64,000 nt of DNA, from positions 512,001 to 576,000 of the forward strand of contig CAVUVW010000013.1 in NCBI GenBank assembly GCA_963745035.1. The letters are read 5' to 3'. The notes beneath the pieces were generated by a model. That model saw only the letters and a list, made by a program, of their open reading frames with translations. It was not told the origin of the DNA and made no database searches. Made by a program: the position numbers and the translations under genes. Shown piece after piece: positions 4,122 to 63,721 of this stretch (position 1 is its first letter; the number at the start of each line of letters is the position of its first letter). The DNA is from an uncultured delta proteobacterium. Lineage in GTDB: Bacteria; Desulfobacterota; Binatia; UBA9968.

Positions 4122-4559
4122 AAACACTCAGCCGACCGACAACATCACTCAATCTGAGAAACCTCAAAGAAAACAAGGCTCGTAGCTCCTCACCGCGCCC
4201 GTTCTTATGGTTCAGTGTAGTTCGCATGGAAACATCATGGAAACAAGTCGATGCCAGCTTTCTCAAATGAGCGCCCCGAGAGACTGAACTCGCGATGGTT
4301 CGTGTTCTGACGGCTCAAGGACTGTCATTGTCTCGTCCCGCTCTATAAACAACTGGAAACCCCAGCATTCGTCGCGCAGCAATGGGAAACTGTTTCATCA
4401 CCAAATGCTTGTATGTGCAGGGTAGTGCGATTACCGTAATTGCCTCATCGACCTGCACACGCAAGTTGCTTGGAACGAATCATACGACCTCGTTCGCCGC
4501 TGTGGAGCTTTACCGGCTGCTAAGGTATCGCGACTCGACTCAGGGAATTGGTCCAGTTC

Positions 4560-4760
4560 GCGTTTGGATCTGCGCGTCTGCGTCGGTGGGCACAATCGTA
4601 TCTTGACCGTTTACAGAGAACGCATTGCGCGGGTAGTGCATGATTGAGCCATAGTCATACTTGCCCACATCATCGCCATCTGTGATGTGTTGACGAAAGT
4701 TATACTCTTCCCCGAGGAATGATGTTTTCCTTTATGATTGTTACGAAAGCGTCCCCCGGT
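4560..4760 (-). pseudogene. astacin (M12A) metallopeptidase C-terminal fragment
   Basis: Manual translation DAFVTIIKENIIP/GEEYNFRQHITDGDDVGKYDYGSIMHYPRNAFSVNGQDTIVP contains the SIMHY Met-turn; frameshifted, HExxH part missing; ends approximate. Confidence 0.75.
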
Positions 4761-4989
4761 CTAATCGTCCTTTGCCAATAGACAACGCGCTAACGCGGAA
4801 GAGGACCGGAATGACGTCGCGCTCCTCCGGTGAGAGCCCTTCGAGAAATGATTGGAATTGCTCCAGTTTGTCGTCCTTGGCCCTGGCCATGGTATCCTCC
4901 GAGGCGGTTTCAGGAGGCGAAGTCCGCCTTCATAAATCAGTTAATCTAGCGGCAAGTTTTCAGTTTTCACAATGTGTTCTTATGCTGGT

Positions 4990-6307
4990 TCATTTGTCCC
5001 TGAGATAGTTCACTTTGCCCATCAGTTTCTCTGTCTCGGGTAAGTCTTCTTGCGGTTCCTCGACCTGTCGCAACAATTCGGCGTTTCCTTTCCAAAGAGT
5101 GCTATTCTCTGGGGGTTGACCGTACAGGTCTGGGTGCAAGTGGTAGCCGCGCTCATTCGAAGGCTTATCCTCTTCTACTGCTAAGGGGTTTCTTTTTGCC
5201 CGAGCGTCCCGACGAATACCGGTCACTTGCCAGGAGACCTTCATCCTGCCGTGCCGCCTGCAATCTTGAAGCGACTGTTTGAAATCTCTTGAGAGACGTG
5301 GAGGTTGGGGCAGGCCCTCCAATCGAGGTAAGCTGGTGCCGGAAGTCGCTTTGAGCGCTTCCACCCAACTTGGAACTTCCACGGTACGCTCACCGTTGTC
5401 GTCAGAGCTACAAATCCGTCATAGACATTCTTCATCTCGGAGGATTCGACGAACGAATGGGAAAGATACTTGTTTGATGGATCGAGCGGGTGATCGATCT
5501 TAAAGCCCCCGCCGGCCTTGAATATGGCCCCGGTGACGGAAACACTTCCTTCAAAATATCCAGCAAACCGATCGTCCGCGCTGGCGTGAAGGGCGATTAC
5601 CTCTGCCCCGCTACCCTCCGGCCCCTGCTCGCCCTTGCAACTATCCCGGCATTAAAAGAACTACTGTTACGCGCGAAACTACGCACGCCAACGTTAATCG
5701 TTGGCCCAGCGTGAGTGGCGGCGGCAATGCCTTCTGCACCAACACTCAGAAAATCGCTACCGCTAAAGCCCTCTCCACGCACGCCCGCACCCATTCCAGT
5801 CGTCCTACCAAGCACCCCGAAACGGTGCCTCGTGATATCGGGCGTGACGGCCACCCCAAACACACCCACCACGCCGGTCCCAAATACGCCGGCGCTGGTG
5901 TTGCCTTGACCAAGCACACCGATGGGAAAAACGCCGCCTTCTCCCCAGGCCGCCCTATGACGCCCCTGCCCGCTTTTGCTTGTATCAATCACTCCATCGC
6001 CGTTTTCGCTGTTTCCAACGACGCCCACGCCATCTACACTCCCAGCATTGATACCGTTTCCCGTCCCGCTCTGCGCACGAACGCCATTGGAGCTCACGCT
6101 GGTTGCGGTGAGCCCGGATCCTGAGGTGCTAGTCGCGACCGCGCCGGGACCGTCTATGCTCTCAGCTTGGACGCCAATACCGAATCCTGCAGGAGCGTGC
6201 GCACGGATGGCCGTCCCGTCGGCTCCCTGGTTTGTGATGGACAATGCAGCTTGCTCTGGTGCCGACACCGAACTCTCGCATGGAATAGGAAGTCCACATT
6301 CCGCCAT
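4990..6307 (-). pseudogene. Gly-rich repeat (beta-helix/fibre-like) surface protein, multiply frameshifted
   Basis: GVxG/GVxA repeats followed by FKIDHPLDPSNKYLSHSFVESSEMKNVYDG and VSWQVTGIRRD...GYHLHPDLYG, spread over several frames. Confidence 0.7.
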
Positions 6308-6532
6308 AACGTTTTCCCCTGGTCTGAGATTGATCGGTAGTTGAGTTCTTGACGCGAGCTGATGTATAAGGGAATCCGCTAAGAACGGGAGGCCGTTACA
6401 ATCAGTTAAGAAGACCGAAAGCCGGTGGAAAATCGTGGAGAAGTGCCCCGACAAATCCACGGCTTCTCTCGATTTGAAAGCCAAGCGCCGGTAAGTTTCA
6501 CAGATTATTTCGGAGCGCAGACACAACGCAAT

Positions 6533-8113
6533 ATGTCGCCTGATTGTCATCTAAGTTTTGTCGTCACTACGCGCAATGACAACCATGGGGGCGACATGCT
6601 TCGCCGCTTTCAAATCTTCGCCGAGACCCTCTTGCAACAAGCCAATAGGCACTCGCTGAAGGGAGAACTCATTGTGGTCGAATGGAATCCGCCAACGGGA
6701 CCACGACTTCATGAGGTTCTAAAGCTTCGGGTCAAGTCGGACTGTTTTGCTATCAGATTCATAGAAGTCCCTCCGGAAGTGCATCGAGCGATCCGCAACG
6801 CGGATGTGATTCCGCTCTTTCAGATGATCGGAAAAAATGTGGGCATCCGCCGTGCGCGGGGAGAATTTGTTCTGGCTACCAACCCCGATCTCCTGTTTTC
6901 CGACAGTGTCATTGCATTTATGGCTTCCGATAAGCTCTTACCCGATGTGATGTATCGTATTGACCGGCATGACGTTCCCGCCGAAGTTCCCGACAACGTG
7001 TCAGTAGACCGACAGCTTGCCTGGTGCGCCGCCAACGTGCTGAGAATCCATGGTCGGCGTGGGAGTTTCCCCCCTCCGCGTCACCTGCTTTCGAGATTTC
7101 GGGCACGGATTAGAAAGCTGCCGAAGAAAGTTAACGAGCGTGTATCCCTGTGGGGCCGCGCCTTTCGGTACCGCCTCTCGTCTTTGAGATGGGTGAGCCT
7201 CAGAGAGCGGGCTTCAGCCTTGGTATCGCTTTGGTATCAGCTTTGGTATCTAAGGCTGGTAAAATTAAAACTAGGCGCGTCAGCCTCTTTGTCCCTTTGG
7301 TATCACCTCTGGTATCTGAGGATCGCGAAACTAAAAAAATTATTGGGGCAGCTGCCCACTATACTCCATGACCCTAGGCGGGTACTTTGGATTGTACGTC
7401 AGAGTGGGCCCACTCTGCTCAAGAAGCTACTGACCGAGCTCCCTGCGAAGCTTTTCGGCTTGGTTCGACATTGGCTGTGGGGACTTACTTACCCCTTGCG
7501 CTACCTTGCAAACCTGATCTCGACGCCTATCAAAAGGTTAGTGGCTCGATTTCATCCTTTTCTTATTCTTTACAGTCCGAGACTCTTAATCCGACGCGTG
7601 CTCTGGGGAGCTTTGCGACTTACTGATCCTTTACCGAAGGTTCATACCAATGGCTGTGGAGACTTCACATTGATGTCGAGAACCCAATGGTCAGAACTCC
7701 GCGGCTACCCTGAGCTGCCGCTATGGTCAATGCATATCGACTCTCTTCTCTGTTATATGGCGGTCGCCTCCAGGATCCAAGAATATACGTTACGTTCCCC
7801 GGCCAGGATCTATCATATGGAACACTACAATTCTTGGGCGGTGATGACTCCCGATGAGAAACTGAGAACGTTCACGAAGAAACCCTGGATCGACTTCGGT
7901 TTGCTTTCTGACCTCTGGGAAAATATGTACAGGACCACCCGGCCAATCCAATTCAACAGAGAGGACTGGGGGCTTGCTGACTGGGTCCTGGATGAGGTGA
8001 TTATCCAGTCCGGTGAGAAGCAATACCTTAAACAAAGCCCTGCGGTTACATCTAAGGGAGAACTCACATGGGATTCAATGGATCATCATCTATCGAGGCT
8101 ATCTCTGTCTTAG
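6533..8113 (+). CDS. GT-A-like putative glycosyltransferase with a large basic/hydrophobic insertion
   Basis: SFVVTTRNDNHGG, IVVEWNPP, KNVGIRRARGEFVLATNPD; start placed at ATG 6533. Confidence 0.7.
   Translation: MSPDCHLSFVVTTRNDNHGGDMLRRFQIFAETLLQQANRHSLKGELIVVEWNPPTGPRLHEVLKLRVKSDCFAIRFIEVPPEVHRAIRNADVIPLFQMIGKNVGIRRARGEFVLATNPDLLFSDSVIAFMASDKLLPDVMYRIDRHDVPAEVPDNVSVDRQLAWCAANVLRIHGRRGSFPPPRHLLSRFRARIRKLPKKVNERVSLWGRAFRYRLSSLRWVSLRERASALVSLWYQLWYLRLVKLKLGASASLSLWYHLWYLRIAKLKKLLGQLPTILHDPRRVLWIVRQSGPTLLKKLLTELPAKLFGLVRHWLWGLTYPLRYLANLISTPIKRLVARFHPFLILYSPRLLIRRVLWGALRLTDPLPKVHTNGCGDFTLMSRTQWSELRGYPELPLWSMHIDSLLCYMAVASRIQEYTLRSPARIYHMEHYNSWAVMTPDEKLRTFTKKPWIDFGLLSDLWENMYRTTRPIQFNREDWGLADWVLDEVIIQSGEKQYLKQSPAVTSKGELTWDSMDHHLSRLSLS
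7211..7342 (+). repeat. imperfect 66-bp intragenic tandem duplication
   Basis: Encodes ASALVSLWYQLWYLRLVKLKLG and ASASLSLWYHLWYLRIAKLKKL; nested TGGTATC repeats. Confidence 0.8.
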
Positions 8114-9477
8114 GTATAGGCAAGCTCGGCGCCGTCGTAGCGGGTTGCCTTGCCAGCCGGGGGTTTCTTGTGATCGGTGTCGATGTCAACCGGCACTCTG
8201 TCGATAGCTTTAACCGCGGCGTGCCGCCGATCCAAGAACCGGGAGTCGAGGATCTCTACCGTTCATGCCAAGGACTCCTCACAGCAACAACGGACACGGC
8301 CTCGGCCGTAGAAAGGTCGGAGGCCACGCTTATCTGCGTTCCTACACCGAGCGATGCCGACGGTGGCTACTCCCTCCGTTACGTCCTCGAAGCGTGTAAG
8401 GCCGTTGGGGATGCGCTTCGAAACAAAAACGCTTACCACCTTGTGGTGCTGAAGAGCACCGTGCTGCCCGGTTCCTGCGACCGCGATATTATTCCGACAC
8501 TGGAAGCCCGGAGCGGAAAGCGATGCGGGAGTGATTTCGGTTTTTGCTATAACCCGGAATTCATTGCTCTTGGAAGTGTCATCCATAACATCTTTAATCC
8601 TGATCTTGTCCTGATCGGTGAATCCAATCAGACAGCTGGGGATTGGCTGGTGCAGATTTTTGCGCGCCTGCTCAGCACCAAACGACAGACGGCTCGCATG
8701 AACCTTGTGAATGCAGAGTTGGCCAAACTGGCAGTCAACTCCTATGTGACCATGAAAATTACCTTTGCCAATCTTTTGGCCCGCCTCTGTGAACAGCTCC
8801 GGGGAGGCGATGTGGATATCGTAACCGGAGCCTTGGGTTTGGATAGCCGCATCGGCGCCAAGTATCTCAAGGGAGGCCTTGGGTATGGTGGTCCATGCTT
8901 TCCTAGAGACAACGAGGCGATGCTATGTCTGGCCGACCGGCTCGGCGTCTCGTTTCCCCTCGCCATGGCGACTGACCAAGCCAACCGCGAAATTGCTGGA
9001 CACGTCGCGGACGTCGTTGCTTCAAAGGTGCCAATAGGCTCGCGCGTGGGGATCTTGGGTTTGAGCTATAAGGCTAACACGCCAGTAATCGAGGAGTCCC
9101 AGGGCGTTCTCATCACGAAAATTCTGCTGGAGCGCGGCTTCGAGATCGTAGCGTATGACCCGGTCGCCATAGAGCCGGCACGCAAGGTATTCGGAAAAAA
9201 CATCGAATATGCCGCATCAGCGCAGACTTGTATCCTGGAGGCCGACGCAGTTTTGATCACCACGCCGTGGGATGAGTTCAAGCACATCAAGTATTCATGT
9301 TTAAATGGCTCCAAGGACCCGATTGTGATCGACTGCTGGGGAATGCTAGACGGAGAAGTACCTGAATCGCCGCGCGTGATTCGATTGGGCAAAAGCCAAT
9401 TCATCGAGCCTGACATCAGAAATTCTGGCGAGAATCATTACCCAAAGGAGACTCCAATACGTGAATTGGAAAGGTAA
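8068..9477 (+). CDS. UDP-glucose/GDP-mannose dehydrogenase family protein
   Basis: GIGKLG Rossmann motif, CVPTP, KSTVLPG, YNPEF, GYGGPCFPRD, GLSYK. Confidence 0.95.
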   Translation: MGFNGSSSIEAISVLGIGKLGAVVAGCLASRGFLVIGVDVNRHSVDSFNRGVPPIQEPGVEDLYRSCQGLLTATTDTASAVERSEATLICVPTPSDADGGYSLRYVLEACKAVGDALRNKNAYHLVVLKSTVLPGSCDRDIIPTLEARSGKRCGSDFGFCYNPEFIALGSVIHNIFNPDLVLIGESNQTAGDWLVQIFARLLSTKRQTARMNLVNAELAKLAVNSYVTMKITFANLLARLCEQLRGGDVDIVTGALGLDSRIGAKYLKGGLGYGGPCFPRDNEAMLCLADRLGVSFPLAMATDQANREIAGHVADVVASKVPIGSRVGILGLSYKANTPVIEESQGVLITKILLERGFEIVAYDPVAIEPARKVFGKNIEYAASAQTCILEADAVLITTPWDEFKHIKYSCLNGSKDPIVIDCWGMLDGEVPESPRVIRLGKSQFIEPDIRNSGENHYPKETPIRELER

Positions 9478-54274: not shown

Positions 54275-55276
54275 TTATCGTTCGTAGAGTTTTTTAACGA
54301 AGCCGCTCTGTTCGATCTCACGCAGCAAGCTGTCATCGACAAACGCTTTCGGATCTGCGGTCTTGGCTTTCGGATTGTCTTTCTCGATAAAGCCGAGCAC
54401 GGTTTCGACGCCGCGCAGCGAAGGATACGGCGTGTTCTCGTAATACTTTGTGACCAATAGATCGAGCGAGCGATCCAGGTTTCGTTCCTGCTCGGGACCG
54501 ATGCGAAGCTTCTTCTTGACGATGTCTAAACTCTCCTGCTTGTTGTGCTTGACGAAAGCAATTCCTTCGACGTAACCCCTGAGAAATCGCAGCACCTTGT
54601 CACGATTGTTCTTGATATATTGGCGCGTCGTCGCAACCATCGTATGCAGGTAGTAAATGTCGGTATCGGCCATATCGAGCAACACTCGGTAACCGCGGTC
54701 TTCGGCAACGAACATCGAAGGAATCGTTACCACAGCGCCTTCGATACCCCCTTTGTCTAGGCTCGCCAGCATGCTCGGCGACGAGCCGAGTTGCATGACC
54801 TGCACATCGTTGACGCTCATCTTCCAGCGCTGCAGCATCATCAACAACACGGAATGGGACACCGCGCCGATGCGAGTGACGCCGACTCGTTTGCCCTTTA
54901 GATCCGCTGGAGTCTTTATATCGGGCTTGGTAATCAAGCGCTGTAGTCCCTTATTGACGACACTGGCGACCATCACGGTATCGCCGCCGCGCAGCGAAGC
55001 CGCGACCAAGACATCGCCCGCTGAGTTTACCATCTGTACGTCGTTGGCTATCAGCGCGCTGATGCCGGCGGTGCCACCTTGGCCAGTGACGATTACTTCG
55101 ATATCGATACCGTGCTTGCGAAACAGCCCCTTTGTTTCAGCGACCCACACTGCGCTGTGCAAGCCGCTCACTGAACTCAATCCCATGCGCATCTTGTCTT
55201 GCGCGCCCGCAGAAGCGGCCAGACATGCCGCGCTCAACAAGGAAATCAAAGCAGCCAAGCCAACTGATTTACCCAT
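54275..55276 (-). CDS. NMT1/THI5/SsuA-like ABC substrate-binding protein
   Basis: Signal peptide, IKTPADLKGKRVGVTR. Confidence 0.9.
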   Translation of the reverse strand: MGKSVGLAALISLLSAACLAASAGAQDKMRMGLSSVSGLHSAVWVAETKGLFRKHGIDIEVIVTGQGGTAGISALIANDVQMVNSAGDVLVAASLRGGDTVMVASVVNKGLQRLITKPDIKTPADLKGKRVGVTRIGAVSHSVLLMMLQRWKMSVNDVQVMQLGSSPSMLASLDKGGIEGAVVTIPSMFVAEDRGYRVLLDMADTDIYYLHTMVATTRQYIKNNRDKVLRFLRGYVEGIAFVKHNKQESLDIVKKKLRIGPEQERNLDRSLDLLVTKYYENTPYPSLRGVETVLGFIEKDNPKAKTADPKAFVDDSLLREIEQSGFVKKLYER

Positions 55277-55324
55277 GCTTACTCCTGTTTCTCTATCTCG
55301 CCCCTCAAGCCTTCGCCTCGGCCC

Positions 55325-56326
55325 TCACCGCTTGCCCATTTCCGCGAGTGCCTGTTTGAGATAGCCGGGATCGATGTATTTCGAGGGCTGGGGCAGAGGT
55401 TCCTTGAGAACACCCTGATCGGCCGTGAGATTGATGATCGTACGCACGCCTTCGACGTTGAGATCTGCGTTGCGGTCCCAAATACGGTTTTTCCAGTTGT
55501 AATCGTAGGCATAGCGGCAGTGATCCATACTGATCGACATTTCCTTGGTCAGGTATTCGCACGCCGGATCTCGGTTATTTTCCATCCAGCGCATGGTCGC
55601 GACCATCGCTTTCATGAAACGCACTACCAGCGGACGATTTTTTTCAGCCCACGATCGTTTGATGATGTAAACGTTGAACTGAAAGTTGGGCTGATCGTCG
55701 GCGAAGTAACCGATGACGTTGAAGCCCTGTTTTTTGGCGACGAGATCGAGAGGCACGCCGACGGGAGCCGCCGCGATTTGACCCGAAGTCAGAGCTTGGA
55801 ACCGATCGGGCGCGCTGCCGATGTTCAATAGCTTATAGTCTCGCGGATATTCAAGGCCGTGGACTTTCATGACGAGGCGCAAGGCAAACCCGGTGCCGGA
55901 AGTAAGCGTCTGCGATCCTATGGTCGTGCCGCGCAGATCAGCGTAGGTCTTGTATTGCTTGGCGCCGATCATGCTCAGTCCAAGTCCATTGATCAGTCCA
56001 CCGATCATGGTGATATCCGCGCCGCGCTCGTAGGCGTTGATGAGCGTGTCGACGGTAGCGCTTGCGACGTAGATAGAATCGGCCGTCAGTGCCTGAATGG
56101 TCAACGGCGAGCCGCGCATGGTGACGATCGGCACTTCCAGCCCCTCGCGCTCGAAAAATCCCATCTTCGCCGCGACCCAGAGCGGCCCATAACTCAGCGT
56201 CTTCGAGGACTCGCCGATGGGAAACCGAATCTTCTCCTGTGCGGCAGCAGGCGTCGCAAACGCCACCGCGAGCAGAAGACTCGCCACAGCCCGCGCGATC
56301 CACAATCCTCCATCCTCGATCCTCAT
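55325..56326 (-). CDS. NMT1/THI5/SsuA-like ABC substrate-binding protein
   Basis: YGPLWVAAKMGFF, GLEYPRDYKLL; N-terminal MRIEDGGLW derives from an ATCCTCN repeat, so the start is uncertain. Confidence 0.88.
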   Translation of the reverse strand: MRIEDGGLWIARAVASLLLAVAFATPAAAQEKIRFPIGESSKTLSYGPLWVAAKMGFFEREGLEVPIVTMRGSPLTIQALTADSIYVASATVDTLINAYERGADITMIGGLINGLGLSMIGAKQYKTYADLRGTTIGSQTLTSGTGFALRLVMKVHGLEYPRDYKLLNIGSAPDRFQALTSGQIAAAPVGVPLDLVAKKQGFNVIGYFADDQPNFQFNVYIIKRSWAEKNRPLVVRFMKAMVATMRWMENNRDPACEYLTKEMSISMDHCRYAYDYNWKNRIWDRNADLNVEGVRTIINLTADQGVLKEPLPQPSKYIDPGYLKQALAEMGKR

Positions 56327-56351
56327 GACCAGAAGTCCCTTCCTACTTACG

Positions 56352-56386
56352 CACTACTCCATCACTCCAACACTCCATTTCTCCAA
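56352..56386. repeat. CANYACTC octamer tandem repeat
   Basis: cactactc catcactc caacactc catttctc; same family at 42683-42726. Confidence 0.7.
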
Positions 56387-56390
56387 TTGT

Positions 56391-57474
56391 TTACCCAATC
56401 CCCTTGATCACGCACAGCGTATTGCGTCCGGTCCACATCGGCAGAAATACCGAATGGCGGTGCTTGCCGCCGACAACGATGACCATGATGTCCTCGGCCT
56501 TCGTGGAAAGATGAACCACGCCGTCAGGCGTGACGTTCGGCGACTCGCGCAGCAATTCGTCGTCGTTCTTGTGACCTTTGCGCCGCGCCGGTATTTCAGA
56601 AAATTTGAGCGACGCATGTTCCCAGAGATAATCTTTCACCTGCTTTTTCGTGATGCCGTCGCGCGCCATGATCTCCGCGTCCTCGACGCCGAGAGCGATG
56701 AGCGGGGTGCCGCCGCCGAAGCTGCCGACGTCGAGGTGGCTCACGCCATGGTGCATGCGGATGACTTCGGCGAGAGAAGAAAGCGCCTGCTCGCCGCGAC
56801 TGCCGGCGGTGTGGATCGGCAGAAAGCCGTTGATGCCGAAGACCGTCACCGCGTTGTCCTCCGGCTTGAAACCGAACTCCACGTGATACGGCTCCCAGGG
56901 GCTCTTTTCCTGATTTTCGCCGAAGCACATCGTGTACTTGCCCGGCCAGCCCAAAGGTCGATCGATCGGTGTCGCCCGGATAACCGCCGCCGACGGTAAT
57001 CAAAATCAAGCGCATCGCGCGTCCGATCGTCGCGTTCGAGCGAAAGCCTGGACCGAAAACGCCGGCGTCACAATTGACGTTGAGTTGTTTTCTGATCGGC
57101 CCATTCAGCAACAGGGCCGGACCAACATAGCCGGTAGTCGCCTGCACGCCGTAGAGATTGAACCGCGGCTCGCAGATCGCTTCGACGGCAGCGATCACGA
57201 CCGGCAAATATTCCGGCAAGCAGCCGGCCATCACCGCGTTGACGGCGATCTTCTCGATCGAACACGGCGCCCACTTGGGCGGGATCGGTCCGATGATCTC
57301 CTGCGGATCGCGGTTCGTCCCGGACAGCATGCGCTCGACCCGCTCCGGCGTCGGCGGCACGATCGGCAACCCATCGCTCAGCTTTTGGTTGCAAAACCAA
57401 TCATTGACCGCTTCCCAGCTGTCTTCGACTTCGATGAGGTTTGAGGTGAGGTTCACGTATGAAAGCTCCGACAT
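56391..57474 (-). CDS. conserved protein of unknown function partnering UGSC selenoprotein 1 (one +1 frameshift near 56953)
   Basis: SDGLPIVPPT, EKIAVNAVMAGC.PEY, QATTG, NATIGRA; paralog of 60771-61814, which restores TLGWPGKY. Confidence 0.85.
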
Positions 57475-57477
57475 TGT

Positions 57478-57894
57478 TCACGCCCTGATTTGTGTTCGAC
57501 GCTTTGCCTTTCCGCTGTTCCGCTTCCTTCCCCCTTGCGGGGAAGGATTGAGGTAGGGGGTGTTTTGCAGACTATTCGAAATAACTTCCATAACTCCATC
57601 AATGTTTTGGATCACATCATTGTTCCAAAACCTCAACACAATGAATCCCTGATTACGCAACCACGCATCACGACCAGCATCGTAGCTCTCCCGTTCTGCA
57701 TGCTGTCCGCCGTCGAGCTCAATGATCAACCTTTTTTCCAAACATACAAAATCGACGATATAACTGCCCAATGGCTGCTGGCGGCGAAACTTGTAACCAT
57801 TGACTTGCCAGAAACGGAGTTTTTGCCAAAGCAACTGCTCGACGTCAGTGGGATTCCTCCGCAAACGTCTGGCTCTCAAGCGGGCTGGATCCAT
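57478..57894 (-). CDS. DUF559 / Vsr-like PD-(D/E)xK endonuclease
   Basis: ARRLRRNPTDVEQLLW, KFRRQQPLGSYIVDF, IIELDGGQH, VLRFWNNDV. Confidence 0.92.
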   Translation of the reverse strand: MDPARLRARRLRRNPTDVEQLLWQKLRFWQVNGYKFRRQQPLGSYIVDFVCLEKRLIIELDGGQHAERESYDAGRDAWLRNQGFIVLRFWNNDVIQNIDGVMEVISNSLQNTPYLNPSPQGGRKRNSGKAKRRTQIRA

Positions 57895-57939
57895 ACCCCC
57901 TATCCTTACCTTTCCCCGCAAGGGGGAAAGGAATCGGAA
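57518..57939. mobile_element. candidate DUF559 cassette bounded by inverted palindromic repeats
   Basis: 57518-57561 and 57895-57939 are imperfect inverted repeats sharing TTCCCCCTTGCGGGGAA...TAGGGGGT; the cassette is absent from the paralogous module. Confidence 0.65.
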
Positions 57940-58028
57940 GCAAACGGCTTCGGGTCAATCTCAGGTTTCAGAAGACCATTCCCTTGTATCGATTACTGTT
58001 TGTTCATTTAAAGCTCACCCAGCCTGAC

Positions 58029-58566
58029 CTACTGCCCCAACACCAACGTTCTCCCCACCAAATCCACCGCCCCTTCCGCATCCGCGCGATGCTCACCGGG
58101 GCGGGCGCCGCCGCTTGGGTGATGCGGTATCTCCACCAACGGCAGGTTCGCCCTGGCCGAAAAATTTGGCCTCCGTGCGCGCCAGCTCCATGAAAATCGA
58201 CTGGCATAAGGTCACCGTCGGCTTTCCCCTTTTCTGCAGCTCGATGGCGTCGTGGACACTCCACGACGTGCACGACCCTCAAGCGCCCAGACCGGTGATG
58301 ACGGCATCGCACCGGCTAAGCATTTCCTCCATGATGGGCTTCGGCGCGCCCTGCATATGGGTTGGCTTCGTTCTAAAGACAACTTCCTTCGTTTGATATT
58401 TTTCGCCCATGAGCTTTGCCAGTTCTTGAAACATCGTCGTCGAATTCGCCTGGCCGTTATCGATGATGCCCACGGTTTTCCCTTCGAGCGTTTCCAGACC
58501 CGGCACAAGCGGTCGGTCTTTCGGGTTCACTGTTGCTCTGGGATCGAGAAATTTGATAGTCGCCAT
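58029..58566 (-). CDS. UGSC-family selenoprotein 1 (Sec at TGA 58279-58281; one +1 frameshift near 58152)
   Basis: ...VITGLGA-TGA-GSCTSWSVHDAIELQKRGKPTVTLC; homology to copy 2 continues through the TGA. Confidence 0.85.
58241..58278 (-). promoter_or_regulatory. putative bacterial SECIS element
   Basis: CGTCGTGG-AGTGT-CCACGACG stem-loop with the loop 18 nt after the UGA. Confidence 0.75.
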
Positions 58567-58679
58567 GCAAAACACCTTTCGGTCGTCTGGACTTTACTGG
58601 CTCGAGCGAATGTATATCGAAAGCCCGGCGAGTCTCAAGGCTGATTTGCCGACAGCATTAACACGACAAAAGAGTCCGG

Positions 58680-59675
58680 CTACCTGTACAATCCGTCGAT
58701 GTATCCGGATTTGTCGAGCTCTTCGATGAATCGCGTGTCGACAAAATCCTTAGGATTGGCGTTCTTCGCGGCGGGTACGCGCTTCGCCAAGTCGTCGAAG
58801 ATCGTCTTGAAGCCCTCCAGCGTTGGATAGGGCTTGACCTGGACGAAGCTATTGAGCAGCTGATAAGTATCGTCGATCTCTTTTTCGTCTTTGATCTGCA
58901 TGCGCCTCGACAGCGCGCGCTTGGCAACGGCCGGATTGGTGCGCATGAGATGAATGCCTTCGATCACCGACTTCACTACGCGCCGTGTGATATCGGGGTT
59001 CTTCGCAATAAACCTTTGCGTCGTATTGAGGCCGGTTTGTTGCACCGGAATATTCATCTCTTGCATGTTCACCAAAACGCGCATGCCGGAAGCGACGGCC
59101 TTCACATAATAGGGCGGCTGAATGATCGCGCCGTCGATGATTCGGCCCGTAGATAGCGAAGCCAGTAGAACCGGCACGTCGCCGACCTGCACGTAGGAAA
59201 CGTCTTTGTCCGGATCCAGGCCGAGCTTGCCAACCAAGAGCCGCGACATCGAATCCGTAACCGTGCCGAAGCGCGTGATACCAAGTCTTTTGCCCTTGAG
59301 ATCCGCGACAGTCTTGATCTCCGGACGCACGACAAGTCGATACAAAGGCTTGTTGAGGAAACTCGCGACCATCACGACGTCGACGCCCTGCAACCGTGCA
59401 GACGAGAGCAGACTGCCGGAGTACACGCACATATCGATTTCACCGGCGATCATCGCCGTCTGTCCGAGAGTGGTTTGCAAATAAAGAATCTGCGGGTCGA
59501 CGCCGTTTTTCTGAAAGAGCCTGCCCTCGTCGGTCACCCACAACATCGCGTTGCTCACCGTTGCCCCGGAGTAACCGATGCGAACCTTGTCGGCTGCCGA
59601 GGCGAACTGCCGAGGGGAGAGGACCAATGTCACTACGGCAACGATGAATAGAAGATGAAATCGAAAATTGCTCAT
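58680..59675 (-). CDS. NMT1/THI5/SsuA-like ABC substrate-binding protein
   Basis: Signal peptide, IKTVADLKGKRLGITRFG; tandem paralog of the next gene. Confidence 0.9.
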   Translation of the reverse strand: MSNFRFHLLFIVAVVTLVLSPRQFASAADKVRIGYSGATVSNAMLWVTDEGRLFQKNGVDPQILYLQTTLGQTAMIAGEIDMCVYSGSLLSSARLQGVDVVMVASFLNKPLYRLVVRPEIKTVADLKGKRLGITRFGTVTDSMSRLLVGKLGLDPDKDVSYVQVGDVPVLLASLSTGRIIDGAIIQPPYYVKAVASGMRVLVNMQEMNIPVQQTGLNTTQRFIAKNPDITRRVVKSVIEGIHLMRTNPAVAKRALSRRMQIKDEKEIDDTYQLLNSFVQVKPYPTLEGFKTIFDDLAKRVPAAKNANPKDFVDTRFIEELDKSGYIDGLYR

Positions 59676-59681
59676 GGGGAC

Positions 59682-60662
59682 CTAGCGAATTGAATCGATG
59701 TATCCAGATTTGTCCAGTTCTTCGACAAACCGGAGATCGGCAAAGTCTTTCGGATCGGCATTTTTTGCCGCAGGCATACGCTTGGACAGGTCATTCAAGA
59801 TCGCTTTGAAGCCTTCCAAGCTGGGATAGGGTTTGATTTGCGTGAAGCCGCGGAGTTGCTGATAGGTTTCTTCCAAATCCTTCGGATCTTTAAGGCGCAT
59901 GCGGAGAGAGAGCGCGCGTTTCGTGGTCTCCGGATCTCTGCGCACAACCGCGGCGCCTTCCACCACCGCTTTGACTACGCGTTTAACGATGTCCGGCCGG
60001 GCGGCGACGTACTTTCTCGTCGTGATCAAACCGGCATGTTGGTAGGGGATCACCGTTTCCTCCAGGTTCATCATGATGCGACCGCCATTCTCGACCGCCC
60101 TTTTATGATCCGGCGGATCGAAGATCGCGCCATCCACGGATTTCGCCATCAGCGCCGCGACACGGGTCGGCGTATCGCCGATCTGCAGGATTGTAACATC
60201 CGTGTCAGGATTCAGTCCGAGCTTCGACACCATCAAACGCGTGCCGAAATCCGACGCCGTGCCGAAGCGTGACACACCCAATCGTTTGCCTTTCAAATCT
60301 GCCGCTGTCTTGATGTCCGGGCGCACGACTAAGCGCGAGACTAGATAATTTAGGAAACCAGCGATCATCGTCACATCGGCGCCCTGAAGCCGGGTGGGCG
60401 TCATCAATAGACCTGTATAAACGGCGAACTGCGTTTCCCCGGCGATCAACGCGGTCTGGCCGAGCGACGCGGCCAGGTAAAGCACCTCGGCGTCGATACC
60501 GTTCTTGTCGAAAAGTTTCGCTTCCTTGGTCACCCAAAGGAGCGCGTTGCTTGTCGTCGTGCCGGAATAACTGATGCGCAGTTTGTCGGCGGCGGACAAG
60601 TTGCTAGCCCACACCAGACCAAGGAAGCAATACAGGATGATGAGTGATGATCGTCGGCGCAC
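59682..60662 (-). CDS. NMT1/THI5/SsuA-like ABC substrate-binding protein
   Basis: Signal peptide, IKTAADLKGKRLGVSRFG. Confidence 0.9.
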   Translation of the reverse strand: MRRRSSLIILYCFLGLVWASNLSAADKLRISYSGTTTSNALLWVTKEAKLFDKNGIDAEVLYLAASLGQTALIAGETQFAVYTGLLMTPTRLQGADVTMIAGFLNYLVSRLVVRPDIKTAADLKGKRLGVSRFGTASDFGTRLMVSKLGLNPDTDVTILQIGDTPTRVAALMAKSVDGAIFDPPDHKRAVENGGRIMMNLEETVIPYQHAGLITTRKYVAARPDIVKRVVKAVVEGAAVVRRDPETTKRALSLRMRLKDPKDLEETYQQLRGFTQIKPYPSLEGFKAILNDLSKRMPAAKNADPKDFADLRFVEELDKSGYIDSIR

Positions 60663-60663
60663 G

Positions 60664-60699
60664 CCCTCACCCTTCCCTCTCCCGCAAGCGGGCGAGGGT
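60664..60699. repeat. solo REP-like palindrome resembling the DUF559-flanking family
   Basis: CCCTCACCCTTCCCTCTCCCGCAAGCGGGCGAGGGT. Confidence 0.75.
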
Positions 60700-60731
60700 A
60701 AGAATAAGTGAAGAATGTCTTCGATCCGAAA

Positions 60732-60768
60732 CGATTTGAACGATTTGAACGGCTTGAACGTTTTGAAC
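60732..60768. repeat. nonamer tandem repeat CGNTTTGAA x4
   Basis: cgatttgaa cgatttgaa cggcttgaa cgttttgaa. Confidence 0.75.
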
Positions 60769-60770
60769 TC

Positions 60771-61814
60771 TTAGTCCCGAATTAGTTTCGTGACCGATCT
60801 CGTCGAACCGCCTTCCGGCGTGCTCTGTCCCCAGACGTGAATGTATTGCGACTGCGAGCCGTCGCCGCCGGCGACGACCACGAGAATATCTTCCGGTTTA
60901 TCGGTCACCGGGATCACGCTGTCGCGGGTGAGTTTCAGATCGCTGCGCCGTTTGACCCGCTGGTCAAAAGTTTCGTCCGGAAGATCCTTCATGCGATAGG
61001 CTGCGCGCTCCCATATAAATTTCTGAACATCTTTTTTGCTGAATCCGTCGTCCGCGATGATCTTGGCATGCTCCGGGCAAATCACCATGATGGCCTCGGG
61101 GCCGGAGGGTCCATCCATCTTCTGGGCGAAATTGATGAGCACGCCCTCCGCCTTGCTGCTGTCAAGATCCGAAGCTCGGATGGAAGCGTCCGCGCTGATC
61201 GCCGTCACCGTGCTTTGCTCCTTCTTGAAGCCGCGCTCCACGTGCAGCGGCTCCCACGGGCTCGCTTCCTCGTTCTCGCCGACACAGATCGAATATTTTC
61301 CCGGCCAGCCGAGTGTGGCCTTGCACGTCGTACCGGGATACGAGCCGCCGATATTGCGCTTCACCAGTTGCACGAAGCGGCCGATCGTCGCATTGGCGCG
61401 CCACCCTTCGCCCAAAGCGTTAGACCCGCCATTGATGTCGATGGTCTTTCGGATCGGACCGTTGACGATGATCATCACCGCCGGCCCGCCGGTGGTTGCT
61501 TGCAATGCATAAAGATTAAGCTTGGGATCGGTGATCGCCTCCACCGCGGCGATCAGCACCGGCATGTATTCGGGCTTGCAGCCCGCCATCACACCGTTGA
61601 TGGCGATTTTCTCGACAGTTGCCTGCGCCCAGCGCGGCGGCACCGCGCCGATAACATCCTGCGGATCGCGCTTGGTGGCGGCGAGCATCTGGCCGACCCG
61701 CTCTTCGGTCGGTGGAATGATCGGCAAGCCGTCGGACCAGCCCTTTTCTTCAAAGAAAGTCTGCGCCGCCCAGATATCGTCCGGTATCTCGAATCGCTCC
61801 GCTTGGAGTGCCAT
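60771..61814 (-). CDS. conserved protein of unknown function partnering UGSC selenoprotein 2
   Basis: SDGLPIIPPT, EKIAINGVMAGCKPEY, QATTG, ANATIGR, ENEEASPWEPLH. Confidence 0.9.
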   Translation of the reverse strand: MALQAERFEIPDDIWAAQTFFEEKGWSDGLPIIPPTEERVGQMLAATKRDPQDVIGAVPPRWAQATVEKIAINGVMAGCKPEYMPVLIAAVEAITDPKLNLYALQATTGGPAVMIIVNGPIRKTIDINGGSNALGEGWRANATIGRFVQLVKRNIGGSYPGTTCKATLGWPGKYSICVGENEEASPWEPLHVERGFKKEQSTVTAISADASIRASDLDSSKAEGVLINFAQKMDGPSGPEAIMVICPEHAKIIADDGFSKKDVQKFIWERAAYRMKDLPDETFDQRVKRRSDLKLTRDSVIPVTDKPEDILVVVAGGDGSQSQYIHVWGQSTPEGGSTRSVTKLIRD

Positions 61815-61831
61815 GTTTCCGTCCTCGAGGC

Positions 61832-61869
61832 AAAAAAAATCCCCGCCGAACGTTCTCGTCCGGCGGGGA
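61832..61869 (-). terminator. intrinsic terminator-like hairpin between selenoprotein 2 and its partner
   Basis: Minus strand TCCCCGCCGGACGAGAACGTTCGGCGGGGA followed by T8. Confidence 0.75.
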
Positions 61870-61880
61870 AGACGTAAATA

Positions 61881-62435
61881 TTACGTTCCAGTAGCTGCCC
61901 GGCGCGCTTGCGGCTCGAGCAGGATATCAACGAGCTTGGCAAACGCCGCGTCCGCGCGCTTGTTGACATCCTCCACCTTCACCGTGCCGATCGGATGCTG
62001 CACGACCAGCACCGGATGATCCGGCGCGCCGAAAGCCTCCTTCTCGGACTTTGCCAGCGCGTCAAAGGCGTGGGTGATCAACGTCACCGCAAAGCGGCCG
62101 CGCTTTTGTAATTCGATCGAGTCGTGGACACTCCACGACGTGCACGAGCCTCAATCTCCCAGGCCGCTCAGGACGAAATCCGCCTGGGCCGCCAACTCGT
62201 CCAGATATTCCTTCGGCGCGCCTTGCTGCGCCGTCAGCTTGCGCCGCGAAATCACTTTGGCGACGCCGTACTCTTTTTTGAGCAGGTCCGCGAAACGCTC
62301 CGCCAGCTTATCCGCATTGGGCTTGCTGTTATCGAGCAGGCCGACCACTTTACCGTGCAGATCCTGGAAGCGCGGCACAGCGGCGACCTTGGCGGCCGAT
62401 GTCTGCGCCTTTCCCTCCGGACTGAGAACAATCAT
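61881..62435 (-). CDS. UGSC-family selenoprotein 2 (Sec at TGA 62151-62153), 184 aa
   Basis: ORFs 62151-62435 and 61881-62087 are in one frame: ...VLSGLGD-TGA-GSCTSWSVHDSIELQKRGRFAVTLITHAF... Confidence 0.92.
62113..62150 (-). promoter_or_regulatory. putative bacterial SECIS element
   Basis: GTCGTGG-AGTGT-CCACGAC hairpin; 27 nt identical to copy 1. Confidence 0.75.
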
Positions 62436-62510
62436 TCATGCCTCCTTAAACTTGAAGCCAAACAAACCTATCCCCTTTCCACCACGTCTCCTTCGAAAAT
62501 AGGAGTGAAG

Positions 62511-62585
62511 AAAGATCTCTCACTTCGTTCGAGATGACAGAGACTTGTACCGCATTGTCATTTCGAGCGGATGCGAGAAATCTTT
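62511..62585. repeat. REP-like inverted pair, same family as 44745-44818
   Basis: AAAGATCTCTCACTTCGTTCGAGATGACA...TGTCATTTCGAGCGGATGCGAGAAATCTTT. Confidence 0.85.
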
Positions 62586-62594
62586 CCTTGGCGG

Positions 62595-62632
62595 CCCTCA
62601 CCCATTCCTTCTCCCGCAGAGCGGGCGAAGGG
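62595..62632. repeat. solo REP-like palindrome resembling the DUF559-flanking family
   Basis: CCCTCACCCATTCCTTCTCCCGCAGAGCGGGCGAAGGG, immediately after the amidohydrolase stop. Confidence 0.7.
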
Positions 62633-63721
62633 CTACAACCCGTAAAATGCCTTCGGGTTGTCATAAAGAATCTTCTGCACGGCCGCCTGGGGAATGTCCC
62701 CTTTGTCCGCTCGCGCTTGAAGTTCCTTGCGAAATTCGAGCTCCATCGATGGATCGCGATGCGTGTAGTCCGATCCCACCATCAGATTATTTTCGCCGAC
62801 GGTTTTGATGATATACGGAAGGTCTTCGTCGACCTGGCACGTGATATAGATGCGGTTCTCCTCGAACACATTCTGAGGCAGCTCGATCAGCGGGACACCG
62901 AGCACGCTGGTGCTCTCGCGTCCCTGCTGGCGCAACTGCTGGCGCCGCAGATCGTAGGCCACGAACGGCGCCCACATGGAACCCGCCTCGATACAGCCGA
63001 AGCGAAGCTTGGGAAACTTTGCCGGAACCTTGTGCAGAATAAGCCCGAGCACACCGTTGATCGCCGCGCCCTTCGTGCGCATGAATTGGCCGTGCGAAAA
63101 CTCCCGCGCGGGTGAGAAGTCCGGCACACCCGAACCGGTGTGGATACAGATCGGCAAATCGAGTTTCTCGGCTTCGGCATAGAAAGGTTCAAAGTACGGA
63201 TCGGCCGGATATTTGCCCGCCTCGCGATCGCCCTTCTTCAATACACCGCAGGCGCCATGATCTTTGGCCCAGCGTATTTCCGCCAGGGCGTCCTCCATAC
63301 TTTGCAGCGGCGGCATGCAAACCCAGCGCAGCCGTCCGCCCGATTCGGCGCAGCGGTCGCCCAGCCAGCGGTTGTAACTGCGCCGCATGGCCGCGTTGAT
63401 CTCCGGCTTTTCCGTCGCTTCCATCAGGAAGAGCGTGGGATAAATCACTTGTATGTCCGTGCCCAACTCATCCATGTGCTTCAGGCGCGCCTTGACATCG
63501 AGCAGCTCGCGCGTTTCCACGGTCGTGCCTGAATCCTTGTCGCTGCGAACAAAGCGAATCTGACGTTTGCCGTCGATCACCCAGTAGCGCGCCGGCGGCA
63601 GCTTCGGATCAGGATTGGACGGAAAAGCAGTCGACGGCTTAAAAGGCGCGTCGGCGTCCGGCATATACTCCCAGGTGGCGTCGGTTTCATCGATATGTGT
63701 GTCTGCGTCGATAATTCCCAC
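62633..63721 (-). CDS. amidohydrolase family 2 protein
   Basis: IDADTH, IHTG, IEAG..W, GSDYTH, ILYDNPKAFY. Confidence 0.92.
   Translation of the reverse strand: MGIIDADTHIDETDATWEYMPDADAPFKPSTAFPSNPDPKLPPARYWVIDGKRQIRFVRSDKDSGTTVETRELLDVKARLKHMDELGTDIQVIYPTLFLMEATEKPEINAAMRRSYNRWLGDRCAESGGRLRWVCMPPLQSMEDALAEIRWAKDHGACGVLKKGDREAGKYPADPYFEPFYAEAEKLDLPICIHTGSGVPDFSPAREFSHGQFMRTKGAAINGVLGLILHKVPAKFPKLRFGCIEAGSMWAPFVAYDLRRQQLRQQGRESTSVLGVPLIELPQNVFEENRIYITCQVDEDLPYIIKTVGENNLMVGSDYTHRDPSMELEFRKELQARADKGDIPQAAVQKILYDNPKAFYGL

Follow-up and report, generated by a model that had tools for sequence, protein, structure and literature searches.

The 64,000-nt stretch analysed here (the window; positions 512,001 to 576,000 of contig CAVUVW010000013.1 in assembly GCA_963745035.1, from an uncultured delta proteobacterium) carries two paralogous modules. 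Each pairs a gene for a UGSC protein, in which an in-frame TGA stands at the place of a selenocysteine (Sec, U), with a gene for a protein of an unnamed family, called the partner here. We consider it reasonably probable that each module encodes a two-part selenol/thiol oxidoreductase, the parts of which are fused into one chain in many relatives. All coordinates are window positions, and all features of the cluster lie on the minus strand within 54275-63721. The two modules comprise the following features.

61881-62435, minus strand: UGSC-2 selenoprotein gene, 184 aa, with U95 encoded by TGA 62151-62153 in the motif GD-U-GSC
62121-62139, minus strand: hairpin of UGSC-2 resembling a selenocysteine insertion sequence (SECIS), from predicted fold and covariation
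60771-61814, minus strand: partner-2, 347 aa, unnamed family
58029-58566, minus strand: UGSC-1 selenoprotein gene, with Sec at TGA 58279-58281 and an extra base near 58150 in the assembly
58249-58267, minus strand: SECIS-like hairpin of UGSC-1, from predicted fold and covariation
56391-57474, minus strand: partner-1, with an extra base near 56949 in the assembly

An initial annotation, made from the letters alone, had noticed that two open reading frames (ORFs) end at TGA yet stay in frame as U-GSCTSWSVHD-x-IELQKRG, and translation showed this to be correct. Past TGA 62151-62153, the frame of UGSC-2 runs for 89 further codons (U-GSCTSWSVHDSIELQKRG...) to a stop at 61881-61883. The ORF of UGSC-1 (58279-58575) stops at TGA 58279-58281 and then continues in frame as U-GSCTSWSVHDAIELQKRG; its true start is probably ATG 58566 and not GTG 58575, because the orthologues start with MA(T/K)LKMLDP. 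When read through, UGSC-2 is a member of the UGSC family by both available models, with 161.6 bits against PF24696 (cut-off 25) and 134.1 bits against NF041046 (cut-off 125). UGSC-1 scores 126.6 bits against PF24696 and 97.8 bits against NF041046, the latter under the cut-off of 125 because a frameshift takes off its C-terminal third. The annotation was thus right to call UGSC a recognised family, which is also described in passages of PMC2398784.

The TGA position is conserved among relatives. At least 613 related stretches were found in species-representative genomes, and 79 loci, holding 91 partner domains, were kept for comparison. In the 72 UGSC domains of these loci, the U column holds TGA in 68 cases and Cys, Gly, Ser, and a gap in one case each, and the motif reads uGSC in 57, uGGC in five, and uGAC in four. 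All four UGSC matches in the host genome contain exactly one TGA each, at the same profile position. The fact that all four genome copies and 68 of the 72 related domains have a TGA there indicates that the in-frame TGAs are not a product of chance. U95 of UGSC-2 and U99 of UGSC-1 align with tryptophan or cysteine in homologues. The Cys-containing forms (CGSC, CGNC, CASC, and CGAS) line up with the U column, the alignment that had been proposed as a check on the Sec reading. Many database homologues on short contigs have tryptophan at this column, presumably because gene callers translated the TGA as Trp.

The genome also encodes the machinery for Sec, another check that had been suggested. 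In the host assembly (7.4 Mb in 28 contigs, 92.6% complete, 5.8% contamination), selA (592 bits), selB (347 bits), selD (385 bits), and tRNA-Sec (76.7 bits) were all detected above their cut-offs, all on contig C17, and selD itself contains one TGA. In UGSC-2, 11 unpaired bases after the TGA codon are followed by an 8-bp stem (GTCGTGGA / TCCACGAC) closed by a GTG loop. This hairpin corresponds to alignment columns 15-33, counted from the T of TGA, and its loop is GTG or GTA. Over 69 distinct sequences, 86.4% of the cells pair, compared with 77.1% in shuffled alignments (0 of 500 shuffles reached the observed value), and sliding the partner column lowers pairing to at most 48%. At pair 21-27, 36 of the 69 sequences have GC and 30 have CG. 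This swap changes Trp to Cys on one arm and leaves a synonymous Val codon on the other, which points to selection on the RNA structure. We also considered that the TGAs might be true stops followed by a separate downstream ORF, and ruled this out in view of the continuous family match across the TGA, the fused and Cys-containing forms, and the covarying hairpin. Decoding of the TGA as Sec in the UGSC genes is plausible on this comparative evidence.

In copy 1, both genes are broken in frame, which the initial annotation had not noticed. The frame of UGSC-1 breaks near 58150, after ...FFGQGE, and another frame goes on as LPLVEIPHHPSGG... to 58029; the intact orthologues P0294-P0296 go on as LPLVEIPHHPSGG... 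past the same point. The frame of partner-1 breaks near 56949 (TFG | WPGKY). A third gene, likewise absent from that annotation, stands between the two:

57478-57921, minus strand: DUF559 (Vsr-like endonuclease) gene, PF04480 147 bits, between UGSC-1 and partner-1

Inverted repeats of about 44 nt, 82% alike, flank it (57518-57561 and 57895-57939). The gene is single-copy at the DNA level in the genome and is found too in contigs of near-identical strains; together with its repeats it looks like a small inserted element. Those contigs have one base fewer at 57732, within the DUF559 gene. Two frame breaks and an inserted gene inside 2.2 kb could be taken to mean that module 1 (56391-58566) is a decaying pseudogene with two real frameshifts and a DUF559 insertion, which would leave one working module in the window. 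We give this reading little credence. The contigs of near-identical strains, which come from four runs (X1, X5, X6, and X10) of four studies, lack the extra bases at both sites: at 56949 one base fewer is seen at full depth in X1, X6, and X10, with X5 having one base fewer at 56952 or 56953 at partial depth, and at 58150 one base fewer is seen at full depth in X5 and X6, X1 and X10 having no coverage there. The DUF559 gene sits between the genes and interrupts neither UGSC-1 nor partner-1, and both frames are otherwise open and conserved. Frame breaks also occur in other genes of the assembly: the partner of a third module (the second module on C13, C13:712349-713279) is divided over different frames, two GRDB genes out of the four discussed below are broken into two and three pieces (C27:167171-168227 and C15:302335-303377), and two selB matches lie in different frames (C17:316680-318567). 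So many frame-split genes suggest a high rate of indel errors. Since the strain contigs lack the extra bases and other genes of the assembly are frame-split too, we read the frameshifts of copy 1 as indel errors; from these sequence comparisons they are most likely assembly errors, and in nature both modules of the window are probably intact. We ruled out programmed frameshifting in copy 1, as the breaks differ in place among paralogues and are absent from the contigs of other strains. RNA runs contain only small parts of the stretch.

The linkage between UGSC and partner, which had been named as something to verify, proved to be conserved across a wide range of bacteria. By their deposited names, the 79 loci belong to Binatia, Methylomirabilota/Rokubacteria, Poribacteria, Chloroflexota, Acidobacteriota, Alpha-, Beta-, and Gammaproteobacteria, actinomycete metagenome-assembled genomes (MAGs), and one Bacillaceae isolate. 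For 65 of the 91 partner domains, a UGSC domain stands on that strand no more than 300 nt away; the order is partner-then-UGSC in 29, UGSC-then-partner in 23, and in 13 the two are fused without a stop in the linker. Nine further partner domains have UGSC at 301-1500 nt, and three lie at contig ends. In the host genome, all four UGSC genes adjoin a partner, and in two of these copies, on C11 and at C13:712-714 kb, a single ORF encodes the fused pair. Either part can come first in a fusion. A fused Sec form is also present in the culturable Robertmurraya sp. 2P01SA (locus L077). Among 66 long partner representatives, 43 contain UGSC pieces at E<=1e-3, 37 of these above the Pfam cut-off, and several are plainly Sec fusions that were split at the TGA, for they start just after U (P0130, P0133, and P0135) or end just before it (P0128 and P0136). 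A natural Cys-containing fusion (P0174) gave a confident AlphaFold2 (AF2) model (pLDDT 93.5, pTM 0.93), which suggests that its UGSC and partner domains would be packed in a fixed way; P0166 is another natural Cys fusion.

The partner is also fused to other redox domains. An AhpC-TSA/Redoxin domain lies N-terminal to the partner in P0225 (CPTT motif) and P0237 (CATC motif), and the catalytic domain of ferredoxin:thioredoxin reductase (FeThRed_B, PF02943) lies N-terminal to it in P0259. In P0251, a UGSC half, a partner, and FeThRed_B form a single chain. These fusions suggest a redoxin-like part for UGSC. Because the redox modules are interchangeable around a constant partner, we assign the partner as the catalytic, substrate-holding part and UGSC as the selenol/thiol redox centre; this pattern of domain swaps argues that the partner may be the subunit that holds the substrate.

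As the initial annotation had stated, each UGSC gene is followed by a paralogous partner of about 350 residues bearing the motifs DGLPxxPPT, QATTG, and NATIGR; partner-2 has DGLPIIPPT, QATTG, and NATIGR, and partner-1 has DGLPIVPPT, QATTG, and NATIGR. Their sequence identity is 51% for residues 7-176 and 38% for residues 163-329. The family motifs of partner-2 are DGLPxxPPT, NAVMAGC, QxTT, NGP, RANATIGRA, C-x-x-ENE, and PW. No Pfam or NCBIfam family matched the window partners, no Pfam family matched any of the 66 aligned members, and among 120 relatives listed no Pfam domain was found and every source name was 'hypothetical protein'. The family is large: at least 7997 of 8000 scored candidates are members at E 1e-3, and a set of 50%-identity representatives gave 5605 matches at E<=1e-3, 3767 at 1e-10, and 1400 at 1e-30. 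Over the 91 partner domains, D28, G29, N141, R146, E180, W187, and C79 are each present in 90, L30 in 89, and C177 in 80, and G78-C79 is invariant in the family alignment. The candidate catalytic residues are the near-invariant C79 (in NAVMAGC, at a helix start), C177 (before ENE), and the conserved Arg, Asn, Glu, and Trp. Six proteins of 709-741 aa (P0125, P0126, P0143, P0173, P0236, and P0271) hold at least two partner stretches, P0125 and P0143 being tandem duplications of the partner domain, and neither a Pfam match nor a UGSC domain was found in the six. In five Poribacteria loci (L046, L047, L049, L051, and L057), the partner has every conserved residue and a shortened C-terminal region; the redox partner of these proteins, if any, must be encoded elsewhere.

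Structural searches found no relative of the partner. Its AF2 model (pLDDT 95.2, pTM 0.93) places C79 between helices 67-77 and 81-94. In a Foldseek search against the PDB, only rows with low template modelling (TM) scores were returned, the best being 7xky_A (E 4.9e-4, TM 0.23-0.26). These rows name class I fumarate hydratase, at TM 0.23-0.28, as well as cyanuric acid hydrolase/barbiturase, and we take none of them as a sign of a shared fold. With VIA-align, none of 48161 solved chains reached Z>=5 (best Z 4.1), where a best Z of 7-8 is typical for models without a clear match, and a comparison with PDB chain sequences found nothing (best E 0.35). The ESM Atlas gave back nothing beyond the partner's own family, in which no Pfam family was common; its automatic names, 'thioredoxin family' and 'thiol-disulfide oxidoreductase', were set aside as an echo of the fused forms and not as evidence.

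The likeness to glycine-reductase-type protein B (GrdB), which the initial annotation had pointed out, turned out to be real. The host genome has four genes of the GRDB family (PF07355), each beside a GrdE/PrdA-like gene (PF09338) where this was checked. When read through the TGA, they contain ...TST-U-GT(C/S)(T/S)RSGA...ELEKAG(I/L)P..., and a relative in the phylum reads U-GTCTRCGATMAKEIERAGIPV, the string that the annotation had given. Two such read-through GrdB-like genes, L035 (C13:700986-705023) and L036 (C11:121180-125235), have an in-frame TGA and a PF09338 neighbour each. Glycine/betaine-reductase-type genes were not expected in an apparently Binatia-class soil bacterium, and the family occurs in only five of 151 sampled genomes of the phylum. 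An hhalign comparison of a UGSC profile (16 sequences) with seven GRDB read-through proteins gave a probability of 96.1% (E 2.9e-9) over 79 columns, with U aligned on U; comparisons with single GRDB sequences gave 77% and 23%. From the profile alignment we conclude, at the level of sequence, that the Sec-bearing half of UGSC and the Sec segment of GrdB-family proteins are homologous. None of 18 UGSC sequences matched PF07355 even at E<=10, because this model stops just before Sec: in a 436-aa GRDB protein it spans residues 8-353, the last of which directly precedes U354. UGSC is not itself a GRDB-family member, as it is without the N-terminal domain of about 350 aa and the PF09338 partner. The UGSC partner shows likeness to neither of these, the hhalign probability being 0.2% with the PF09338 protein of the host genome and 0.3% with the GRDB N-terminal domain.

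The model of the fusion P0174 also provides a view of the UGSC fold. The Sec position, a cysteine in P0174, comes after strand 99-105 and opens helix 108-123. When the whole fusion was searched with VIA-align, the best structural matches to its UGSC region (residues 36-190) were flavodoxin-like/Rossmann-like, with Z 8.5-10.6, and Foldseek returned an azoreductase for this region (E 2e-4). Among the matches listed for the UGSC region in these whole-fusion searches, there was no thioredoxin-fold chain, and UGSC found nothing among PDB chain sequences (best E 0.34). The best explanation of the model is that UGSC would be a small flavodoxin-like alpha/beta domain with its U-G-S-C centre at a helix start directly after a beta strand.

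How the two parts might work together can be proposed by analogy with proline reductase, in which the Sec of PrdB attacks the substrate bound on PrdA and the complex is regenerated by PrdC, according to passages of PMC11229817. In the first of three steps, the selenolate of UGSC would attack a partner-bound intermediate, which might be a disulfide or adduct of Cys79 or else the bound substrate. In the second, the cysteine of UxxC (C98) would resolve the intermediate into an Se-S bond, which in the third would be re-reduced by a thioredoxin-type or ferredoxin-dependent (FTR-type) reductase. In this scheme we infer that the unfused proteins touch each other, which way the electrons flow, and what C79 and C177 do. 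The two-component, Sec-dependent reductase or thiol-transfer enzyme of the initial annotation stands up in its redox role, which fits the swaps of fused redox domains. As for the different specificities that it ascribed to the two copies, the paralogues are about 45% identical, and a difference in specificity is deduced from this identity only.

Its further proposal, that the enzymes act on imported small molecules, was drawn from the genes around the modules, which are as follows.

62633-63721, minus strand: Amidohydro_2 gene at the head of the cluster, PF04909 86.6 bits
59682-60662, minus strand: NMT1/SsuA-like periplasmic binding-protein gene, PF09084 78.2 bits, TIGR01728 92.9 bits, under the cut-off of 163.5
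58680-59675, minus strand: NMT1/SsuA-like periplasmic binding-protein gene, PF09084 69.6 bits
55325-56326, minus strand: NMT1/SsuA-like binding-protein gene, PF09084 69.3 bits
54275-55276, minus strand: NMT1/SsuA-like binding-protein gene, PF09084 87.9 bits

The PF09084 and PF04909 matches agree with the description of a binding-protein gene pair after each module and an amidohydrolase at the cluster head. All four binding-protein genes score under the SsuA and taurine cut-offs, and no ATP-binding cassette (ABC) permease or ATPase was found among the cluster genes scanned (54275-63721). A thiamine pyrophosphate (TPP)-enzyme gene lies directly upstream of Amidohydro_2, past the window end (L032:952-2610), and the TPP enzyme/Amidohydro_2/binding-protein context is syntenic with the Binatia locus L043. 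This closest relative (a Binatia MAG contig, 4320-8257) has the order UGSC, partner, UGSC, partner, and then a single binding-protein gene, and is without the two binding-protein genes that part the modules of the window. For the wider survey, 452 neighbour ORFs of the 79 loci were clustered; a Pfam scan covered 146, those of loci L043-L068, and the other 306 were treated by clustering alone, the cluster names being taken from members among the 146. No conserved third gene was found near the module by this clustering, the commonest neighbour cluster occurring in at most seven of the 79 loci: TPP enzymes, TctC, and CoA-transferase III occur in seven each, MmgE/PrpD, SDR, and one unassigned cluster in six each, NMT1 in five, and Amidohydro_2 in three. 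With NMT1-type and Amidohydro_2 genes so rarely near the module, the action on imported small molecules is only weakly supported. The local context (TPP enzyme, Amidohydro_2, and SsuA-like genes) is a weak lead, hinting at small acids or sulfonates. A link to sulfonate metabolism was considered and is kept as a lead only, the evidence consisting of sub-threshold TIGR01728 scores and synteny in close relatives.

These contexts bear on two other readings of the function. The homology of UGSC to the GRDB Sec segment would fit a strict counterpart of glycine and proline reductases, in which an electrophile of the partner, for example a pyruvoyl group formed by self-cleavage at G78-C79, binds an amine and the Sec of UGSC attacks the alpha-carbon, so that a C-X bond adjacent to a carboxylate, such as C-N, is cleaved reductively. 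The same genome pairs GRDB with PF09338 GrdE/PrdA-like genes in a layout parallel to that of UGSC and partner; G78-C79 is invariant in the partner alignment, and PrdA matures by cysteinolysis, as passages of PMC11229817 report; and TctC, MmgE/PrpD, and CoA-transferase III are carboxylate-handling neighbours. We nevertheless regard this strict form as unlikely, since the partner resembles neither the PF09338 protein nor the GRDB N-terminal domain in the hhalign comparisons above, the turn between two helices that holds C79 in the model is unlike a typical self-cleavage loop, Sec is kept in the C11 paralogue although Ala takes the place of C79, and the fusions to CxxC redoxin and FTR-B domains point to disulfide-relay chemistry.

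Still less probable, in our view, is that the pair turns over no substrate and instead serves, through its Sec/Cys and Cys ligands, to bind, carry, or detoxify soft metals or metalloids or to process selenium or sulfur themselves. U-x-x-C and a conserved Cys of the partner could chelate, the gene contexts vary widely, as is common for stress and detoxification genes, and passages of a 2026 review (PMC13188914) say that several orphan prokaryotic selenoproteins may bind metals. Against this, genes for metal resistance or metal transport do not recur around the module in the neighbourhood survey (146 of 452 ORFs scanned against Pfam, the rest clustered), four paralogues in one genome and tandem double-partner proteins fit better with an enzyme family of diversified substrates, and the FTR-B and redoxin fusions imply electron flow.

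Several observations count against our preferred reading of the modules as two-part selenol/thiol oxidoreductases. Fourteen of the 91 partner domains lie inside a locus without UGSC within 1500 nt, including those of all five Poribacteria loci. Some fused UGSC domains lack both U and C (P0134, P0186, and P0256). The C11 paralogue keeps Sec (U-S-T-C) and has Ala and Phe at C79 and C177, so that the cysteines of the partner are not essential in every member. Gene neighbourhoods in the 79 loci show no consistent pathway, and the contigs used for the frameshift comparison derive from other samples, so that a strain-specific, real frameshift in copy 1 is possible.

The UGSC family is already known, and its fusion partner was glimpsed in 2008. 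UGSC was named as a selenoprotein of unknown function in 2007 (PMC1976440, which lists Hyphomonas neptunium among its carriers), and the passages of PMC2398784 (Zhang and Gladyshev, 2008) place it among the major selenoprotein families of the Global Ocean Sampling (GOS) data and describe its fusion to a conserved domain called 'Unknown_1', which is presumably the partner family of the window. The pairing that the initial annotation had described as hidden by UGA codons has thus been on record in fused form since that year, if Unknown_1 is indeed the partner. In the relevant passages of PMC9312934 (2022) and of the 2026 review (PMC13188914), UGSC is still listed without a function. Neither a link between UGSC and GrdB/PrdB nor a description of the partner family was found in full-text literature passages, a body of text with subscription journals outside its scope. 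New here are the conservation of the UGSC-partner module, as two genes or fused, in many phyla; the large size of the partner family, for which no family name and no solved structural relative was found; the homology of the Sec module to the GrdB family; the exchange of redox domains fused to the partner; covariation in the SECIS-like hairpin; and the defects of copy 1 as probable assembly errors. UGSC is now tied to a partner family of thousands, to a GrdB-family Sec module, and to thioredoxin-type and ferredoxin-dependent redox domains, and its 'unknown function' becomes a testable proposal, that of a two-part selenol/thiol reductase. The partner family deserves a Pfam entry and is well worth solving structurally. 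Annotators should bear in mind that gene callers truncate UGSC genes at the TGA or translate it as Trp, and that Sec fusions get split into pieces resembling proteins of 420-460 aa.

A wider proposal can be put forward tentatively, as possible rather than probable. UGSC and partner may form a very widespread, unrecognised class of selenoenzymes in aerobic bacteria of soil, fresh water, and the sea. As a pared-down relative of clostridial glycine and proline reductases, this class would combine a GrdB-type Sec module with a catalytic subunit of a fold unseen in solved structures, cleave C-X bonds of small carboxylates or sulfonates reductively, and occur as many paralogues of differing specificity. 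If this is true, an orphan selenoprotein family that ranks among the most abundant in aquatic metagenomes would gain a function.

Among known systems, GrdB/PrdB (PF07355) has U-G-(S/T)-C after a hydrophobic strand, followed by E-L-(E/Q)-K-x-G-x-P, in common with UGSC, as well as an H-P-x-G turn and a C-terminal helix. With GrdE/PrdA (PF09338) it shares the two-gene layout of a Sec protein beside a larger subunit, as seen for UGSC and partner. UGSC differs in having about 95 residues before Sec in place of the N-terminal GRDB domain of about 350 aa, its partner is unrelated to PF09338, and its hosts are, by deposited names, mostly aerobic soil and water lineages. The UGSC family in the passages of PMC2398784 agrees with the proteins studied here in its U-G-S-C motif, its length of about 180 aa, and the fact that Sec forms far outnumber Cys forms; those passages suggest that it is 'likely Trx-like', whereas the best matches listed for our model are flavodoxin-like/Rossmann-like. 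A third comparison is with redoxin-dependent Cys enzymes (CxxC thioredoxin-fold, PF02943). The likeness lies in the fusion of the partner to AhpC-TSA/Redoxin or FeThRed_B in place of or beside UGSC, and the differences are that UGSC appears not to have a thioredoxin fold in the model and uses Sec, and that the partner stands outside the known client families.

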